Below, in pieces: positions 8,954 to 62,356 of a stretch of 64,000 bases of DNA. This stretch comes from Escherichia coli (GTDB lineage Bacteria; Pseudomonadota; Gammaproteobacteria; Enterobacterales; Enterobacteriaceae): NCBI RefSeq assembly GCF_045037415.1, contig NZ_CP173438.1; one strand, 5' to 3'. Position 1 is the stretch's first letter, and every line of letters starts with the position of its first letter. The translations under genes were made by a program, and so were the position numbers. The notes beneath the pieces are model-generated. The model worked only from the letters and a program-made list of their open reading frames with translations, did not search any database and had not been told where the DNA came from.

Positions 8954-9532
8954 CTAAATTTCAGTATACCTTTTCTTCGCTGTAATAAAGTCGTCCGGAG
9001 TATCAATATCTAAAATTATTTCTGCATTTTCTATTTCGACGGAATAATGTTCTCCCATAAGGAGTGCCTGACGCATATTGGTGACATTGGGGCGCTGGAT
9101 TGCCTGCATCAGGCATGGTTTTGACACTAAAATCGGATGGCCGGGGATGCCATTATGGAGTGGCAGTATTGCGCCATCATTTCGTAACGACCAGATTTTT
9201 CTAAAAATATCGATGGTGAGGGTTGGCATATCTCCGTGGGTGAGAAAACAATGTTCTGTTTGCACCGCGGGTACTGCGGCCTTTACTGATGTCAGTAAAC
9301 CCTGCGCATAATCTGGGTTGTGGATAATAGTGATATTGCTCTGGTTCGCATAACGTTCGTGCAGTTCATTACCACGATAGCCGGTGACTAAAATAATTCG
9401 GCTACAAAACTGCAACGCATTTTTGATACTTGTATCAAGAATTGTTCCCTGTTGCCAGGGTAACATCATTTTCCATTGCCCCATTCTTGATGATAATCCT
9501 GCGGCGGTAATTATACAGTCGATGGCTGACAT
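8954..9532 (-). CDS. mocA: Molybdenum cofactor cytidylyltransferase (MobA-like nucleotidyltransferase)
   Basis: 192 aa; N-terminal AIDCIITAAGLSSRMG nucleotidyltransferase motif. Confidence 0.88.
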   Translation of the reverse strand: MSAIDCIITAAGLSSRMGQWKMMLPWQQGTILDTSIKNALQFCSRIILVTGYRGNELHERYANQSNITIIHNPDYAQGLLTSVKAAVPAVQTEHCFLTHGDMPTLTIDIFRKIWSLRNDGAILPLHNGIPGHPILVSKPCLMQAIQRPNVTNMRQALLMGEHYSVEIENAEIILDIDTPDDFITAKKRYTEI

Positions 9533-9635
9533 AGTGATTCCATTATTTACAGGAGCTAATAACGCCTGATAATTGCGTTACTTCCTGATGGATTACGTTG
9601 AGGGTAATTTATCCCAGAGAGGTCCATAAAGACGC

Positions 9636-10406
9636 GTGAAAAGTATAATTGACCCATCGGCATTATTCATTGATTTAGGCGCGCAGAAACGTCCCACTGT
9701 GATTTCTATTGTTGGTGCTGGGGGGAAAACCAGCTTGCTTTTTTGGCTGGCAGAACTGTTCCAGGCGAGTGGCAGGCGTGTATTAATCACTACGACGACA
9801 CATATGTTTATGCCAACATCTCACTGGCCCGTGGTTTTCTGTCGTGATCCCGCCATGCTTCCTCATGCGTCTTTTATATCCCCCATTTCATTTTGTTTTC
9901 ACTGCTGGAAAGCGAACCAGGGAAAAGTGCAGGGATTTACGCCAGAAGCGATTGATGCACTGGTACAACGACCAGAGTGTGACGTAATTCTCATTGAGGC
10001 AGATGGCTCGCGTGGAATGCCGTTAAAAGCGCCTGATGAGCACGAACCTTGCATACCTAAAAGCAGTTGCTGCGTGATTGCTGTGATGGGAGGACATATT
10101 TTGGGTGCGAAAGTGAGCACAGAAAATGTCCATCGCTGGTCGCAGTTTGCTGATATTACTGGGTTAACACCTGATGCACCCTTGCAACTGAGCGATCTCG
10201 TTGCGCTGGTTCGCCACCCTCAGGGCGCGTTTAAAAACGTACCGCAAGGTTGTCGGCGAGTCTGGTTCATTAACCGTTTTTCTCAATGTGAGAATGCGAT
10301 TGCGCAAAGCGAGCTCCTTCAACCGCTGCAACAACACAACGTAGAGGCAATCTGGCTGGGCGATATACAAGAACATCCTGCAATCGCGCGCAGATTTGTG
10401 AATTAG
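9636..10406 (+). CDS. yqeC: P-loop accessory protein of selenium-dependent molybdenum hydroxylase systems
   Basis: 256 aa, GTG start; Walker A IVGAGGKTS. Confidence 0.85.
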   Translation: MKSIIDPSALFIDLGAQKRPTVISIVGAGGKTSLLFWLAELFQASGRRVLITTTTHMFMPTSHWPVVFCRDPAMLPHASFISPISFCFHCWKANQGKVQGFTPEAIDALVQRPECDVILIEADGSRGMPLKAPDEHEPCIPKSSCCVIAVMGGHILGAKVSTENVHRWSQFADITGLTPDAPLQLSDLVALVRHPQGAFKNVPQGCRRVWFINRFSQCENAIAQSELLQPLQQHNVEAIWLGDIQEHPAIARRFVN

Positions 10407-12079: not shown

Positions 12080-12087
12080 ATGAAAAT

Positions 12088-12113
12088 GGCCGGATGGTAT
12101 TACCCATCCGGCC
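12088..12113. terminator. Bidirectional hairpin terminator between convergent yqeB and yqeA
   Basis: GGCCGGATGG-tatta-CCCATCCGGCC followed by TTTAAATT. Confidence 0.6.
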
Positions 12114-12119
12114 TTTAAA

Positions 12120-13099: not shown

Positions 13100-14485
13100 T
13101 TAGAGCACGGGAGGGACAAACGGTTTGCGTCGCAGGAAACGACCTCGCCCGGCTTTGCCTGTAAAGGTGCCGTCGCAGAAAATCGTTTCACCACGGGATA
13201 AGGTTCTGACAATCGCGCCCTGACAGGTAAAACCCTCCCATGGCGAGTAGTCAGCGTTGTCGTGGAGATGGCGATGCTGAATTTGTTGGCTCTGACGTGG
13301 GTCTATAATCACCACGTCGCCATCGGAACCGGGCGCTAATAATCCTTTTTGTGGCCACAGGCCAAACAGCCTGGCGGGCATTGCACTGGTTAACTCAACA
13401 AAACGCTCCGGTGAGATACGCCCCGTCATCACGCCACTGGAGAACAGCAGTTGCATGCGGTTCTCCACACCGGGTAAGCCATTTGGGCAGCGGCTGAAAT
13501 CGCCTTTAGAAATTTGCAGGCGTTGAGCCATCGAGAAGGTGCAGTGATCGGTTGCCACCACGTCAATCGCACCATCGCTGATGCCACACCACAGTTTGTC
13601 CTGCTCGCGTACGTTACGCAGCGGTGGGCTAAGAATGAACTTCATGCCATCTTCTGTATCGTAACTGCGTTCGTCCAACAGGAGATATTGTGGGCAGGTT
13701 TCAACCCAGACTGGCTGGTGATTCGCACGGGCAAGACGCAGATAATCCAGACCTAAGCCGTTAGACAGGTGCACGATATAGAGCGGGGCGTTACCGGCAA
13801 TTTGTGCCAGGTTAATCATGCGGGCGATGGCTTCCGCTTCGCATTCCAGAGGTCGACTCAAGGCATGATAACGCGGCGCGGTTAACCCTGCGGCGATAAA
13901 CTCCGCCCGCTTGCTGGCGATAGCTGCGTCATTTTCCGGGTGCACGGTGGTCAGCGCGCCGGACTCATGCAAGCGGCGTAATGCCTGCAACACTTCATCA
14001 TCGTTGAGTTTATATTGATAGGTTAAATAGAGTTTAAAACTGCTCAGTCCTTCCTCAACCATCATCGGAATTTCGTCGAGGATAGCGTGATTAATATGTT
14101 GAATGACACCGTGAAAGCTGTAGTCGATGACTGCTTTGTGGGCGGCATAACCGCGATAAACTTCCAGTTGATGGCGTAACCGGCAGCCATTTGGGCCAAA
14201 TCCCATATGGTCAATAATGGTTGTTGTACCGCCACACGCAGCTGCGCGGGTACCGGTAAAAAAATCATCACAACTGCGCGCGATGCCGACATCAATATTG
14301 AAATGCGTATGGACATCCACGCCGCCAGGGAAAACGTAACAGCCAGAGGCATCAATTTCTTCGCAAGGGAGTTGCGGCGAAATATCGGTACCCAACTGGC
14401 GAACAATCCCGCTTTCAATCAGCAAATCCTGCTTCGCCTGTCCATCTGCATTAACAACAATGCCGTTTTTTATCAATACGCGCAT
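13100..14485 (-). CDS. hyuA: Cyclic amidohydrolase (D-phenylhydantoinase/dihydropyrimidinase family)
   Basis: GGVDVHTHF metal-binding motif; ATG at 14485 with GGAG RBS preferred over the upstream TTG of the 465-aa track ORF, giving 461 aa. Confidence 0.92.
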   Translation of the reverse strand: MRVLIKNGIVVNADGQAKQDLLIESGIVRQLGTDISPQLPCEEIDASGCYVFPGGVDVHTHFNIDVGIARSCDDFFTGTRAAACGGTTTIIDHMGFGPNGCRLRHQLEVYRGYAAHKAVIDYSFHGVIQHINHAILDEIPMMVEEGLSSFKLYLTYQYKLNDDEVLQALRRLHESGALTTVHPENDAAIASKRAEFIAAGLTAPRYHALSRPLECEAEAIARMINLAQIAGNAPLYIVHLSNGLGLDYLRLARANHQPVWVETCPQYLLLDERSYDTEDGMKFILSPPLRNVREQDKLWCGISDGAIDVVATDHCTFSMAQRLQISKGDFSRCPNGLPGVENRMQLLFSSGVMTGRISPERFVELTSAMPARLFGLWPQKGLLAPGSDGDVVIIDPRQSQQIQHRHLHDNADYSPWEGFTCQGAIVRTLSRGETIFCDGTFTGKAGRGRFLRRKPFVPPVL

Positions 14486-24618: not shown

Positions 24619-25374
24619 TTGAGTGCGGGACGCCTGAATAAAAAATCTCTGGGTATCGTGATGTTGTTATCGGTTGGACTGCTTTTGGCGGGCTGTTCGG
24701 GTAGCAAATCATCCGATACAGGAACGTATTCCGGCTCCGTTTACACCGTGAAACGGGGGGATACGCTATATCGTATTTCGCGCACCACGGGAACCAGCGT
24801 AAAAGAACTGGCGCGACTGAACGGCATTTCCCCCCCTTACACCATTGAAGTAGGTCAGAAACTAAAACTGGGTGGGGCGAAAAGTAGCAGTAGTACACGT
24901 AAATCAACCGCCAAATCCACGACCAAAACCGCATCGGTTACACCGTCATCAGCGGTACCGAAATCTTCCTGGCCGCCAGTAGGGCAACGTTGTTGGTTAT
25001 GGCCAACGACAGGGAAAGTTATCATGCCGTATTCGACAGCAGATGGCGGCAATAAAGGGATTGATATCTCAGCTCCACGAGGTACACCTATTTACGCCGC
25101 GGGTGCAGGAAAGGTGGTGTATGTGGGCAACCAGCTGCGTGGCTACGGTAATCTCATCATGATTAAACACAGTGAAGATTACATTACGGCTTACGCTCAT
25201 AATGACACGATGCTGGTAAATAATGGGCAAAGCGTGAAGGCTGGGCAAAAAATCGCCACTATGGGGAGCACTGATGCGGCATCTGTTCGCCTGCATTTCC
25301 AGATTCGTTACCGTGCAACGGCAATTGATCCGCTACGTTACTTGCCGCCTCAGGGCAGCAAGCCAAAATGCTGA
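24619..25374 (+). CDS. ygeR: LysM plus M23/LytM-domain lipoprotein (amidase-activator type)
   Basis: Lipobox LLAGCS, LysM segment YTVKRGDTLYRISR, C-terminal M23-like domain; TTG start at 24619 chosen to give 251 aa, alternative ATG at 24595. Confidence 0.85.
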   Translation: MSAGRLNKKSLGIVMLLSVGLLLAGCSGSKSSDTGTYSGSVYTVKRGDTLYRISRTTGTSVKELARLNGISPPYTIEVGQKLKLGGAKSSSSTRKSTAKSTTKTASVTPSSAVPKSSWPPVGQRCWLWPTTGKVIMPYSTADGGNKGIDISAPRGTPIYAAGAGKVVYVGNQLRGYGNLIMIKHSEDYITAYAHNDTMLVNNGQSVKAGQKIATMGSTDAASVRLHFQIRYRATAIDPLRYLPPQGSKPKC

Positions 25375-25452
25375 TGGCGAATTAATCAGCAGTCAGCAGC
25401 GTGGTACTTGCTAAGGAGAGCGTAAGGTTTATAATGCCTTACGCATCTCGAA

Positions 25453-25526
25453 GCGGGCGTAGTTCAATGGTAGAACGAGAGCTTCCCAAGCTCTATACGA
25501 GGGTTCGATTCCCTTCGCCCGCTCCA
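25453..25526 (+). tRNA. glyU: tRNA-Gly (anticodon CCC)
   Basis: GCGGGCGTAGTTCAATGGTAGAACGAGAGCTTCCCAAGCTCTATACGAGGGTTCGATTCCCTTCGCCCGCTCCA; cloverleaf with 7-bp acceptor stem, CCC anticodon, encoded CCA. Confidence 0.95.
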
Positions 25527-25797
25527 ATTTATCTTCACATCATCTACCTGCCATTTTTGTTGTATCTGATTTTCTATATTATCTTAATTCAAGCGCTTCA
25601 GACTTTTCGCAATCGCCGTAATACTTCCCCATTTTTTTGTAAATAAAAAGCGTTTACGCAATGCAATCGTCATGTATCTTAAATAGTCTTATTTAAGATG
25701 TTCAGAACTCTTTGTGTGTTTAACTGGCTGATAATTATATAATATTACGAGAGAAGTGATAGAGCGGAATAATAACAAATGAACATTATGAAAACTG

Positions 25798-25832
25798 GGA
25801 TGGTTCAAAATTGAAGCAATTTTGAACCATCC
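25798..25832 (-). terminator. Rho-independent terminator after yqeG
   Basis: Perfect hairpin GGATGGTTCAAAATT-gaagc-AATTTTGAACCATCC, followed on the minus strand by CAGTTTTC. Confidence 0.55.
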
Positions 25833-25842
25833 ACAACGGATA

Positions 25843-27072
25843 TTAGCTAAAGAACATTACCGATACGCACAGGATACCCACGATCAGGGTAATCAGATTT
25901 CCGATGGAACGCCAGGGTTTAAGCGCCGGGATGAGATACGTTGACAGCGTAGGCATGATGAAAAGTATCATGGCAATGAGCGGGCCGCTGATCGCGTAAA
26001 TCATCGAAATCGCGTTCGGGTTAATGCAACAAACAATGAAGGTAATCAGCGATACCAACATAATTGATAGTGCGCGGTTAAATGCACGACTTTTCTTTAC
26101 ACCAACCTGCTGTAATGTTGTTTTGACGACCTCTGTGGCACCTTCAATAACGCCAAAGTACGTACCCAGGAATGATTTCGACATCGCAACTACTGCGACA
26201 ATAATCCCGGAAATTGACAACCATGCTGGGGCGTTCGGCAGCATAGAAAGCGCCGATAAAATGGTAACCCCTTCTTCTTTAGCCGCTTCAATATACGAAG
26301 GTGGAATAGAAAGCAGGCAGCTAAAGACAAAGAACAATACACTTATGCAGATGATGAGATAAGCGACTTTCATAATTTTTTTGCATTTATCCATAGCATG
26401 TTCGCCATATTTTTCACGTCTGTCTATGGCAAACGTAGAAATAATGGGCGTATGGCTAAAAGCGAAAACCATCACGGGAATCGATATCCATATCTGGTGA
26501 AGGGTATTCTGATTGAACTCTACCTGGGTTGTTAATAGATCAGGTTGCCAACTACCGACCAGGTAAATAGAAAGAAATAAGAAATAGGCAATCAATGGGA
26601 ATACCAAAAATCCCATTACCCGAATAGTGGCATGGCGTCCCATCAGAAAAATGAGATTCAGGATTAATACAACCCCCAGACTCACTAGCATACGGATGCG
26701 AAGATCAATAACCATATGCTTTGCCAGCTGTTCCGTAAGTGAGTTGGTAATTGCCACTGCATATATCAACACGACGACAAAAAAGGCGATGAAGTACAGC
26801 GTGGTAATCAGATTACCAATCTTCTTGCCATAGTAGTGTGTTACCGCGCCCGTTATCCCTTCACCTGCTGATGTTTTCGATGAGAGGATGAACTGGCATA
26901 AGGCTTTATGTGGCCAATATGTTAAAGGCCAGGCGACCAGAGCAGTAATAAACAGGACCACAGCCCCCGCCGAACCTAACTGAATAGGAAGGAAGAGCGT
27001 GCCTGCACCAACGGCTGTGCCGTAGAGTGCGAAACTCCACAGAGTTTCTTCTTTTGACCAAATATTAGACAT
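25843..27072 (-). CDS. yqeG: HAAAP-family amino acid permease
   Basis: 409 aa polytopic membrane protein resembling SdaC/TdcC/Mtr-type transporters. Confidence 0.88.
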   Translation of the reverse strand: MSNIWSKEETLWSFALYGTAVGAGTLFLPIQLGSAGAVVLFITALVAWPLTYWPHKALCQFILSSKTSAGEGITGAVTHYYGKKIGNLITTLYFIAFFVVVLIYAVAITNSLTEQLAKHMVIDLRIRMLVSLGVVLILNLIFLMGRHATIRVMGFLVFPLIAYFLFLSIYLVGSWQPDLLTTQVEFNQNTLHQIWISIPVMVFAFSHTPIISTFAIDRREKYGEHAMDKCKKIMKVAYLIICISVLFFVFSCLLSIPPSYIEAAKEEGVTILSALSMLPNAPAWLSISGIIVAVVAMSKSFLGTYFGVIEGATEVVKTTLQQVGVKKSRAFNRALSIMLVSLITFIVCCINPNAISMIYAISGPLIAMILFIMPTLSTYLIPALKPWRSIGNLITLIVGILCVSVMFFS

Positions 27073-27326: not shown

Positions 27327-28508
27327 ATGAAAGACGTTGTGATTGTCGGGGCGTTACGGACACCTATCGGCTGCTTTCGTGGTGCGTTAGCGGGTCATTC
27401 CGCCGTGGAACTTGGCAGCCTGGTCGTCAAAGCGTTAATAGAACGTACCGGCGTTCCTGCATATGCGGTGGATGAAGTGATTCTTGGTCAGGTGTTGACT
27501 GCAGGGGCAGGGCAGAATCCGGCAAGACAATCGGCTATTAAAGGTGGTCTTCCTAATAGCGTTTCTGCAATCACTATTAATGACGTTTGTGGTTCCGGGC
27601 TTAAAGCACTGCATCTGGCTACTCAGGCGATACAGTGTGGCGAGGCTGATATTGTCATCGCCGGTGGCCAGGAAAACATGAGCCGCGCACCACATGTTCT
27701 GACTGATAGCCGCACCGGCGCACAGCTTGGCAATAGCCAGTTGGTTGATAGTCTTGTGCATGATGGGTTGTGGGATGCCTTCAATGATTATCATATTGGT
27801 GTCACCGCCGAAAATCTGGCTCGCGAATATGGCATCAGCCGTCAGTTGCAGGATGCTTACGCACTTAGCTCGCAACAAAAAGCGCGAGCGGCGATTGACG
27901 CCGGACGATTTAAAGATGAGATCGTCCCGGTAATAACCCAAAGTAACGGTCAGACGTTGGTTGTTGATACCGATGAACAGCCACGCACTGACACCAGCGC
28001 AGAAGGCTTAGCCCGTTTAAATCCTTCATTTGATAGTCTCGGTTCTGTGACAGCGGGTAATGCATCATCCATAAACGATGGGGCAGCTGCAGTAATGATG
28101 ATGAGCGAAGCCAAAGCACGAGCGTTGAATTTACCCGTGCTGGCCCGCATCCGCGCATTTGCCAGCGTTGGTGTGGATCCGGCATTGATGGGAATTGCGC
28201 CGGTGTATGCGACCCGCCGTTGCCTGGAGCGTGTTGGCTGGCAGTTGGCTGATGTCGATCTTATCGAGGCTAATGAAGCGTTTGCTGCACAGGCGCTTTC
28301 GGTTGGCAAGATGCTTGAATGGGATGAGCGTCGGGTCAATGTTAATGGTGGTGCGATCGCACTCGGTCACCCGATAGGCGCTTCCGGTTGCCGAATCCTG
28401 GTTTCTCTTGTTCATGAAATGGTGAAACGTAATGCCCGCAAAGGACTGGCAACGCTTTGTATCGGCGGAGGCCAGGGTGTGGCATTGACCATTGAACGTG
28501 ACGAGTAG
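27327..28508 (+). CDS. yqeF: Acetyl-CoA C-acetyltransferase (thiolase)
   Basis: Thiolase signatures VCGSGLKAL and C-terminal CIGGGQGVA; ATG at 27327 chosen (393 aa). Confidence 0.92.
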   Translation: MKDVVIVGALRTPIGCFRGALAGHSAVELGSLVVKALIERTGVPAYAVDEVILGQVLTAGAGQNPARQSAIKGGLPNSVSAITINDVCGSGLKALHLATQAIQCGEADIVIAGGQENMSRAPHVLTDSRTGAQLGNSQLVDSLVHDGLWDAFNDYHIGVTAENLAREYGISRQLQDAYALSSQQKARAAIDAGRFKDEIVPVITQSNGQTLVVDTDEQPRTDTSAEGLARLNPSFDSLGSVTAGNASSINDGAAAVMMMSEAKARALNLPVLARIRAFASVGVDPALMGIAPVYATRRCLERVGWQLADVDLIEANEAFAAQALSVGKMLEWDERRVNVNGGAIALGHPIGASGCRILVSLVHEMVKRNARKGLATLCIGGGQGVALTIERDE

Positions 28509-28664
28509 CTCTGCATTACCTCCTTACCGATAAATATCTGCCGTCATTAATCTGTTGAATAATGATGGCTGGTGAGTCGACATACCTTTTCAGGGCTCCC
28601 TGATTTTTCCATTCTCATGACATATTCGTGATCGACACTGCACTTTTTTTAATCCTTAACTTGA

Positions 28665-28751
28665 AAATGAAACATTGTTTTATTTTTAATTGAAAACCCT
28701 ATCCCATGGGCATATCATCCCCTCATAGAGAAAACGAAACAGTGTTTTATT
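28665..28751. promoter_or_regulatory. Two KdgR-type operators upstream of kduI
   Basis: AAATGAAACATTGTTTTATTT (28665-28685) and AAACGAAACAGTGTTTTATT (28732-28751) match the ATGAAACA-N-TGTTTCAT KdgR box. Confidence 0.55.
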
Positions 28752-28794
28752 ATTGTTTTCTATTTTCACGCTTCACTGATTATCGGAGGTTGAT

Positions 28795-29631
28795 GTGGAC
28801 GTAAGACAGAGCATCCACAGCGCGCACGCAAAAACGCTGGATACCCAGGGGCTGCGCAATGAATTTTTGGTTGAAAAGGTATTTGTCGCCGATGAGTACA
28901 CCATGGTTTACAGCCACATTGACCGTATTATTGTTGGCGGCATTATGCCGGTAACTAAAACGGTTTCCGTTGGCGGGGAAGTTGGTAAACAACTCGGCGT
29001 AAGCTATTTCCTTGAACGTCGCGAGTTAGGTGTTATCAATATTGGCGGTGCCGGTACGATTACTGTCGATGGTCAATGCTATGAAATCGGTCACCGCGAC
29101 GCCCTGTATGTTGGTAAAGGTGCAAAAGAAGTTGTCTTTGCCAGTATTGATACCGCCACTCCGGCGAAGTTTTATTACAATTGCGCACCCGCGCATACGA
29201 CGTATCCCACCAAAAAAGTCACACCGGACGAAGTATCTCCAGTCACGTTAGGCGATAACCTCACCAGTAACCGTCGCACGATTAACAAATATTTTGTCCC
29301 GGATGTGCTGGAAACCTGCCAATTGAGTATGGGGCTGACGGAGCTGGCTCCAGGTAACTTGTGGAACACCATGCCGTGTCACACCCACGAGCGCCGGATG
29401 GAAGTTTATTTCTATTTCAATATGGATGATGACGCCTGCGTTTTCCACATGATGGGGCAACCGCAAGAAACGCGTCACATTGTGATGCATAACGAGCAGG
29501 CGGTGATCTCCCCGAGCTGGTCGATCCATTCCGGCGTCGGAACCAAAGCTTATACCTTTATCTGGGGCATGGTCGGTGAAAACCAGGTTTTTGATGATAT
29601 GGACCATGTGGCCGTTAAAGATTTGCGCTAG
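28795..29631 (+). CDS. kduI: 5-dehydro-4-deoxy-D-glucuronate isomerase
   Basis: 278 aa, GTG start with GGAGG RBS; N-terminus [24 protein letters not shown]. Confidence 0.93.
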
Positions 29632-29660
29632 TTGTGGGCATAAACGAATAAGGTATTGTT

Positions 29661-30422
29661 ATGATTTTAAGTGCATTTTCTCTCGAAGGTAAAGTTGCGG
29701 TCGTCACTGGTTGTGATACTGGGCTGGGCCAGGGGATGGCGTTGGGGCTGGCGCAAGCGGGCTGTGACATTGTTGGCATTAACATCGTTGAACCGACTGA
29801 AACCATCAAGCAGGTCACGGCGCTGGGGCGTCGTTTTTTAAGCCTGACCGCCGATCTGCGAAAGATTGATGGCATTCCAGCACTGCTGGATCGCGCGGTA
29901 GCGGAGTTTGGTCATATTGATATCCTGGTGAATAACGCCGGATTGATTCGCCGCGAAGACGCTCTCGAATTCAGCGAAAAAGACTGGGACGATGTCATGA
30001 ACCTGAATATCAAGAGCGTATTCTTCATGTCTCAGGCAGCGGCGAAACACTTTATCGCGCAAGGCAATGGCGGCAAGATTATCAATATCGCGTCAATGCT
30101 CTCCTTCCAGGGCGGGATCCGTGTGCCTTCTTATACCGCATCAAAAAGCGGTGTGATGGGCGTGACGCGATTGATGGCGAACGAATGGGCTAAACACAAC
30201 ATTAATGTTAATGCGATAGCTCCGGGTTACATGGCGACCAACAATACTCAACAACTGCGGGCAGATGAACAACGTAGCGCGGAAATTCTCGACCGCATTC
30301 CAGCTGGCCGTTGGGGACTGCCGAGTGACCTGATGGGGCCGGTGGTGTTCCTTGCCTCCAGCGCTTCAGATTATGTGAATGGTTATACCATTGCCGTGGA
30401 TGGCGGTTGGCTGGCGCGTTAA
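29661..30422 (+). CDS. kduD: 2-dehydro-3-deoxy-D-gluconate 5-dehydrogenase (short-chain dehydrogenase)
   Basis: 253 aa; SDR glycine motif TGCDTGLG and catalytic YTASK. Confidence 0.93.
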   Translation: MILSAFSLEGKVAVVTGCDTGLGQGMALGLAQAGCDIVGINIVEPTETIKQVTALGRRFLSLTADLRKIDGIPALLDRAVAEFGHIDILVNNAGLIRREDALEFSEKDWDDVMNLNIKSVFFMSQAAAKHFIAQGNGGKIINIASMLSFQGGIRVPSYTASKSGVMGVTRLMANEWAKHNINVNAIAPGYMATNNTQQLRADEQRSAEILDRIPAGRWGLPSDLMGPVVFLASSASDYVNGYTIAVDGGWLAR

Positions 30423-36533: not shown

Positions 36534-36615
36534 CCCAGAGGTATTGATAGGTGAAGTCAACTTCGGGTTGAGCACATGAATTACACCAGCCTGCGCAGAT
36601 GCGCAGGTTTTTTTT
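36534..36615 (+). ncRNA. omrB: OmrB small regulatory RNA (Hfq-dependent, OmpR-controlled)
   Basis: CCCAGAGGTATTGATAGGTGAAGTCAACTTCGGG...CCTGCGCAGATGCGCAGG plus T9 terminator. Confidence 0.9.
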
Positions 36616-36730: not shown

Positions 36731-36818
36731 CCCAGAGGTATTGATTGGTGAGATTATTCGGTACGCTCTTCGTACCCTGTCTCTTGCACCAACCTGCGCG
36801 GATGCGCAGGTTTTTTTT
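36731..36818 (+). ncRNA. omrA: OmrA small regulatory RNA (paralogue of OmrB)
   Basis: CCCAGAGGTATTGATTGGTGAGATTATTCGG...CCTGCGCGGATGCGCAGG plus T8 terminator; same 5' and 3' ends as OmrB. Confidence 0.9.
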
Positions 36819-62293: not shown

Positions 62294-62356
62294 TGCCTGA
62301 TGCGACGCATGTGGGTCTTATCATACCTATGAATGTTGTGCATGTCGCATCCGGCG
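62294..62356. repeat. REP-like palindromic unit(s) between convergent recD and argA
   Basis: TGCCTGATGCGACGCATGTGGGTCTTATCATACCTAT resembles the REP consensus; second partial copy CATGTCGCATCCGGCG. Confidence 0.4.

Follow-up and report, generated by a model that had tools for sequence, protein, structure and literature searches.

The window, by which we mean the whole 64,000-nucleotide stretch of Escherichia coli DNA analysed here, carries between glyU and yqeG the ETT2-negative allele of phylogroup B2, and this empty junction most likely goes back to a single old deletion, of which it is the scar. The existence of an ETT2-free B2 junction is already published and is not a new observation. 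This check adds two refinements: the ETT2 boundary does not coincide with the tRNA attachment core, and the empty site is probably one old deletion scar. The evolutionary value of these findings is modest: they favour loss of the island over its never having been acquired, which bears on the repeated shedding of the second type III secretion system of E. coli.

The locus is framed by two core genes. Its left flank is actS (ygeR; 24619..25374, plus strand), encoding an amidase activator, which was recognized by tblastn with 100% identity to O157 ActS and by a position matching K-12 b2865. The gene glyU for tRNA-Gly(CCC) follows (25453..25526, plus strand). It is the sole tRNA that ARAGORN calls in the 64-kb window, reaches 71.6 bits with the Rfam tRNA model and is 100% identical to glyU of K-12 and O157. 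On the right, yqeG (25843..27072, minus strand) is a 409-aa open reading frame for a HAAAP-family amino-acid permease, showing 100% protein identity to O157 YqeG and annotated as yqeG in matching genomes. The original prediction placed about 316 bp of AT-rich DNA between the 3′ end of the tRNA and the yqeG stop, and this is exact to the base: the spacer (25527-25842) measures 316 bp and has a GC content of 32.0%, compared with 51.1% for the window. Both flanks are collinear with K-12 MG1655, with the order xanQ...xdhA-actS-glyU on one side and yqeG-yqeF-kduID...argA-amiC on the other, and the divergence between the window and K-12 amounts to 2.45%. The spacer diverges from non-B2 alleles by 7-8%. 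A wider zone of raised divergence, considered as a sign of imported flanks, was rejected, the elevation being confined to the 316-bp spacer (7.1%, compared with 0.8-3.4% in the adjoining 500-bp bins).

Comparison with occupied strains divides the spacer into two parts, defined by the point at which megablast matches split and by the alignments to O157 and K-12. Segment A, the glyU-proximal part (142 bp, 25527..25668), is found in ETT2-positive E. coli between glyU and the pkgA/ygeQ end of ETT2. Segment B, the yqeG-proximal part (174 bp, 25669..25842), corresponds in such strains to the yqeG-proximal portion of the yqeG-yqeH intergenic region. In the window, both segments abut with zero extra bases between them. 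A sensitive blastn search of the spacer against the ETT2 interior of O157 and K-12 delivered chance-level matches only, the best being an exact 13-mer with E=0.15, and island remnants in the spacer were rejected as nothing rose above chance. No match was obtained by tblastn with 32 ETT2-region proteins over the 64-kb window; in the same set, matches were seen only for the five flanking proteins ActS, YqeG, YqeF, KduI and KduD. The integrase of the glyU island of strain 98195 gave no tblastn match anywhere in the window, and stops close all six reading frames of the spacer. The 3′ end of the tRNA has no second copy in the window (a 25-mer and a 13-mer each occur once). A degenerate glyU 3′ end near yqeG, considered as a relic of tRNA-end integration, was rejected, since its best match of 9/16 is what chance yields. 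An IS element is lacking too, as the window has no insertion of more than 20 bp relative to the K-12 flanks. The original prediction of a clean empty site, with no integrase fragment, no second tRNA 3′ copy and no IS sequence, thus stands on each of these points: there is no ETT2 DNA, IS or pseudogene fragment between segments A and B, neither island-derived sequence nor attachment-site repeats were found, and the reference lineage does carry an island here.

Alignment against ETT2-positive and ETT2-negative E. coli, which had been proposed as a check of the original prediction, separates two states of the locus. The contiguous junction is present in 1,174 of 5,426 complete E. coli genomes when a 701-bp query is used with megablast, and in 1,217 of 5,426 with an 80-bp junction-centred query (about 22%). 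In essentially all other genomes (about 4,250) the match splits at query position 369/370, equivalent to 25668/25669 of the window. The genomes with a contiguous junction can be regarded as one haplotype, because 1,169 of the 1,174 are at least 99% identical to the window. Over the 701 bp, identity is 100% to SK1144 and others and 99.7% to Nissle 1917; the haplotype of the window is common to Nissle 1917 and NU14, both of them phylogroup B2 strains. Judged by these alignments, the window can be classified as an ordinary ETT2-negative glyU-yqeG allele typical of phylogroup B2. The Clermont markers chuA, yjaA and TspE4.C2 are located outside the 64-kb window, and a B2 host genome is indicated indirectly, by the divergence of 2.45% from K-12 and by the identity with B2 strains.

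At the position where the other E. coli genomes split, ETT2 or remnants of it in the range of 1.5-27.5 kb are found. The original prediction had named K-12 as a carrier of an ETT2 remnant at this locus, and K-12 indeed has between the same two genes a remnant of 11.7 kb comprising yqeH-yqeK, ygeF-ygeQ and IS2. ETT2 of about 27.5 kb lies between glyU and yqeG in O157:H7, and a nearly intact copy of about the same 27.5 kb occupies this interval in RIVM_C039629. In O121 strains, 1.46 kb is left, with a ygeQ′-′yqeH fusion, and many strains show IS1-associated remnants at the locus. The ETT2 loci and remnants of K-12, O157:H7, O121 and the ST69-like type thus share with the window the interval and the flanking segments A and B; they differ in that A and B are separated by 11.7 kb in K-12, by 1.46 kb in O121 and by about 27.5 kb in O157 and RIVM_C039629, whereas the window has nothing between them. 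That B2 strains lack ETT2 has belonged to textbook knowledge since 2004, and the trait serves as a lineage marker. According to PMC7058095 and PMC9241512, which both refer to Ren et al. 2004, most E. coli possess ETT2, the exception being phylogroup B2. The ETT2-negative B2 locus reported for ST131, ST73 and others (PMC7058095, PMC9241512) has in common with the window both the locus and the absence of every ETT2 gene, and no difference between them was detected.

The site had been predicted as an unoccupied tRNA integration site of glyU. It is empty, but the ETT2 boundary is situated 142 bp beyond glyU and not at the 3′ end of the tRNA. The 16-nt 3′ end of glyU, CCCTTCGCCCGCTCCA (25511..25526, plus strand), serves as attachment core in other E. 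coli and is present as a single copy in the window. In strain 98195, an 8.9-kb island is inserted exactly at the glyU 3′ end, with CCCTTCGCCCGCTCCA as a 16-bp direct repeat on both sides; it contains a gene for a 548-aa site-specific integrase, a DUF4145 gene and ISEc12 (L096, 16807-25692), and the order in this strain is glyU, integrase island, segment A, ETT2. As this island directly adjoins the tRNA and precedes segment A and ETT2, glyU has a separate, classical attachment site. This site (25511-25526) is accordingly distinct from the ETT2 junction, and both are unoccupied in the window. The 98195 island and the locus of the window share the same tRNA gene as a landmark. Unlike ETT2, however, the 98195 island inserts at the tRNA 3′ end with an integrase and a 16-bp repeat, and it is absent from the window. 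An imperfect attL/attR pair flanking ETT2, suggested by a 72-bp and a 47-bp piece that seemed alignable, was rejected when the O157 junctions were aligned and compared with shuffled sequences: a direct repeat at the two O157 ETT2 ends scored 23, against 19.9 +/- 2.8 for the shuffles, 70 of 500 of which scored at least as high. An integrase within ETT2 next to glyU was found in none of K-12, O157 and RIVM_C039629. The ‘tRNA-associated’ ETT2 is therefore not inserted at the tRNA attachment core.

A probable trace of the classical attachment site was observed on a plasmid. In pF1053-2 (L003, 3985-4036), a fragment matching window positions 25509-25544 has the appearance of an attR, consisting of a degenerate tRNA T-arm/acceptor 3′ end and 18 bp that follow glyU in the chromosome. 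IS1 truncates this fragment, which adjoins a DUF6998 gene. It probably represents one end of a glyU-integrated element that was captured; a first search gave 58 such attR-like places on E. coli plasmids.

We consider the junction of the window to have been emptied by deletion rather than to be primitively empty, which is probably the correct and in any case the most economical reading. An ancestor with an occupied site is the simplest assumption because of four observations: yqeH in two outgroup lineages, the remnant in E. albertii, the conservation of DNA upstream of yqeH, and a second, independent scar in Escherichia sp. MOD1-EC7003. The two outgroups are divergent Escherichia lineages (L007 and L008) with about 89% nucleotide identity to the window. 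In both of them yqeH directly follows yqeG, and L007 carries yqeI, yqeJ and ygeH as well before glyU. When they are aligned to O157 in 100-nt bins, no step in divergence is seen at the B2 junction: the nucleotide identity per bin is 83-99% in yqeG, 68-79% in the intergenic region on either side of the junction and 84-91% in yqeH. Deeper ETT2 genes are much more diverged than core genes, with amino-acid identities between E. coli and L007 of 72% for YqeI, 70% for YqeJ and 63% for YgeH; this greater divergence could reflect decay or a separate acquisition.

In the type-strain lineage of E. albertii, a 1.3-kb remnant keeps both ETT2 ends at this locus. Our look-up of E. albertii by ActS for loci with intact ETT2 returned the type-strain lineage only, where ETT2 has already been deleted beside an IS1. 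An intact ETT2 at glyU in E. albertii was described by Ooka et al., who inferred an acquisition before the split of this species from E. coli (PMC4700944). Segment B runs into the upstream sequence of yqeH in O157, K-12, L007, L008 and E. albertii, and E. albertii, L007 and L008 have conserved the adjoining 47 bp, which B2 lacks. They have likewise conserved the motif GAATATCTATATYGCAAA; in front of yqeH in Citrobacter sedlakii and C. amalonaticus, this motif is again conserved, together with the yqeH promoter.

The Citrobacter loci (L009, L011, L012, L015; 11.2-18 kb) carry homologues of yqeH (78% amino-acid identity), yqeI and yqeJ after yqeG, along with rcnA-like and fimbrial genes, and no type III secretion genes within 10 kb. 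The secretion genes may have come to the locus later than yqeH-yqeJ, the ‘end of ETT2’.

Escherichia sp. MOD1-EC7003 (L006, 93-94% identity) has an empty site of its own, with 286 bp between glyU and yqeG and no ETT2 genes. As in the window, both genes are adjacent. The junction is a different one: it retains the 47 bp of yqeH-upstream DNA that B2 lacks and is without the last 72 bp of segment A. Its breakpoints share ATCGC (5-6 bp of microhomology), and it was found in no E. coli genome searched. This different junction on a microhomology of 5-6 bp identifies the empty site of MOD1-EC7003 as an independent deletion scar of the typical microhomology kind, which shows that the locus does lose ETT2 by deletion. 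In addition, MOD1-EC7003 lacks kduD, kduI and most of yqeF (window 28072-30422; L006 about 9308-9730), and its similarity to the window is lost past the start of xdhA (L006 beyond 12839). Several deletions or rearrangements have hence affected this locus in the MOD1-EC7003 lineage.

The alternative would be a primitively empty site, in which case B2 branched off before ETT2 entered E. coli and ETT2 was inserted later between 25668 and 25669. This is the commonly cited view, and it is the conclusion which PMC7058095, in its summary, attributes to Ren et al. 2004, namely that B2 is older than the acquisition of ETT2. It has to be weighed seriously, since the B2 junction is perfectly clean: it shows neither a remnant nor microhomology, and it has no indel when set against the joined flanks of occupied strains. 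The same appearance would be expected of a site that was never occupied, and the junction sequence alone is therefore no proof of deletion; moreover, the borders assigned to ETT2 derive solely from comparison with this empty allele. The divergence of 7-8% between the spacer and non-B2 alleles, against 2.45% over the whole window, likewise fits an old split of alleles. However, ETT2 genes or remnants are located at the same junction in E. albertii (PMC4700944) and in the two divergent Escherichia lineages, in the latter of which yqeH is as conserved as yqeG, and yqeH with a conserved promoter follows yqeG even in C. sedlakii and C. amalonaticus. Given outgroups that are occupied at the same junction, a primitively empty B2 would call for several independent insertions at the same nucleotide without recognizable site-specific machinery or repeats. 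We therefore regard it as unlikely, though with a real share of the probability. The term ‘unoccupied’ in the original prediction is correct for the present state of the site and should not be read as never occupied, as the outgroups favour an old, clean deletion.

A virgin reference, that is an Escherichia genome demonstrably never in possession of ETT2, was not found. The scan with YqeG used one genome per species, and E. fergusonii was not recovered in it. The order yqeG ... glyU-actS is kept in Huaxiibacter, Silvania, Enterobacter, Lelliottia, Leclercia and Pseudenterobacter (L026-L031, L036, L038, L039, L067), where 0.9-8.8 kb of cargo made up of unrelated small genes lies between yqeG and glyU. 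Spacers of this Enterobacter group were rejected as a virgin reference as they are not alignable. Variability of the yqeG-glyU interval therefore seems to be old and to extend far outside Escherichia.

According to the deletion model which we prefer, the ancestor would have carried, between segments A and B, the complete yqeH...pkgA(ygeQ) block. A single old deletion, whose right end fell within the intergenic region separating yqeG from yqeH in the ancestor, would have removed this block, and the joint of A to B at 25668/25669 would be its scar. The scar allele would then have been inherited by B2 and occasionally have been moved to other backgrounds by homologous recombination. The last step concerns five genomes whose flanks lie outside the window haplotype and which carry exactly the same 142|174 junction: HH45, Z1323CEC0015, HH97, 2016C-3878 and 2017.11.01CC. 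Identity to K-12 reaches 99.0-99.6% in the flanks of HH45, Z1323CEC0015 and HH97, while the flanks of 2016C-3878 and 2017.11.01CC are about 98% identical to K-12 and to the window alike. Such cases would be expected if the empty junction had arisen many times, this genome included, by a recurrent precise excision, for instance through a site-specific recombinase. All empty alleles of E. coli, however, have a private C at position +3 (GTCATG), whereas the occupied E. coli alleles and MOD1-EC7003 read GTTATG, and HH97, 2017.11.01CC and 2016C-3878 are clear mosaics with B2-type tracts adjoining the junction. HH45 fits a mosaic only partly and Z1323CEC0015 differs from an O121-like allele at +1 and +3 only, so that these two add little independent support. 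Neither a significant direct repeat at the ETT2 ends nor an integrase in ETT2 next to glyU is available for a precise excision, and other losses at this locus are imprecise, being IS1-mediated or internal deletions which leave ygeQ/yqeH fragments. Recurrent precise excision is in our opinion highly improbable. The shared C(+3) and the three clear B2-type mosaics point to one origin spread by recombination, and the non-B2 empty sites fit an occasional import of one empty allele by homologous recombination.

Taken with the outgroups, it is likely that one ancient deletion of about 27-30 kb took ETT2 along with the older yqeH-yqeK regulator block and that the C(+3) allele has since been copied to non-B2 strains by short recombination tracts. 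That the island was merely collapsed or dropped in the assembly of this genome can be dismissed, as nothing was found in support of such an artefact and the same contiguous junction is seen at 99% identity or more in over 1,100 independently finished complete genomes. If true, the deletion scar would overturn the often repeated statement that B2 diverged before the acquisition of ETT2, and it would agree with the inference drawn by Ooka et al. from E. albertii (PMC4700944).

The empty spacer and its surroundings contain further elements. A promoter-like site (TTGCTA, 16 nt, TATAAT; 25408..25435, plus strand) was detected in a consensus scan with 10/12 matches. It ends 17 nt before the 5′ end of the tRNA and, from this position, would serve glyU. 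An AT-rich palindrome, ATCTTAAATA-GTCT-TATTTAAGAT (inverted repeat I8, 25676..25699), starts 7 nt from the junction. It shows 0-3 mismatches in E. coli, MOD1-EC7003, L007, L008 and E. albertii, compared with about 70% identity in the surrounding intergenic DNA. The palindrome may be a candidate binding site, for a regulator or of the H-NS type, of the former yqeG-yqeH intergenic region. A weaker sequence resembling it was noticed upstream of yqeH in Citrobacter.

Transcription of yqeG is predicted to end at an intrinsic terminator (25798..25832, minus strand), which was found by a terminator scan 10 nt past the yqeG stop and consists of a perfect 16-bp stem and a 3-nt loop, followed by CAGTTTTCAT. 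The RNA fold of the minus strand at 25660-25850 has -38.5 kcal/mol (z = -3.68), and none of 200 shuffled sequences was equally stable. A structured RNA or sRNA in the spacer was considered and rejected: Rfam at E<=1 yields the tRNA only, and the plus-strand fold of 25524-25720 has a z of 0.05 relative to shuffles.

Two sequence differences within the spacer were also observed. At 25726-25746, seven B2-specific substitutions fall within 21 bp (GG..TT..TA..T, where O157, O121 and K-12 have AA..AC..GG..G). As the outgroup MOD1-EC7003 is closer to the non-B2 form, the seven substitutions look as if the B2 allele had acquired them in one multi-nucleotide change. K-12 MG1655 lacks 76 bp of segment A (window 25537-25612; K-12 locus L001, about 14472-14476), which are present in O157 and in the window. 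The ends of this deletion lie in short repeats (ATCTTC / TCGCC), and it is a microdeletion of the K-12 lineage just downstream of glyU.

Elsewhere in the window, small differences from K-12 were noted. About 125 extra bases, flanked by a 28-bp repeat, are found in K-12 between yqeA and yqeB (L005, 13727-13880) and are absent at window position 12087-12114; a small repetitive extragenic element is the likely explanation for them. In the argA-recD intergenic region, the window carries a 20-bp insertion (CATGTGGGTCTTATCATACC) at 62308 relative to K-12. The sRNA genes omrB (36534-36615) and omrA (36731-36818), both on the plus strand, are intact as in K-12, with Rfam scores of 86 and 97 bits, respectively.
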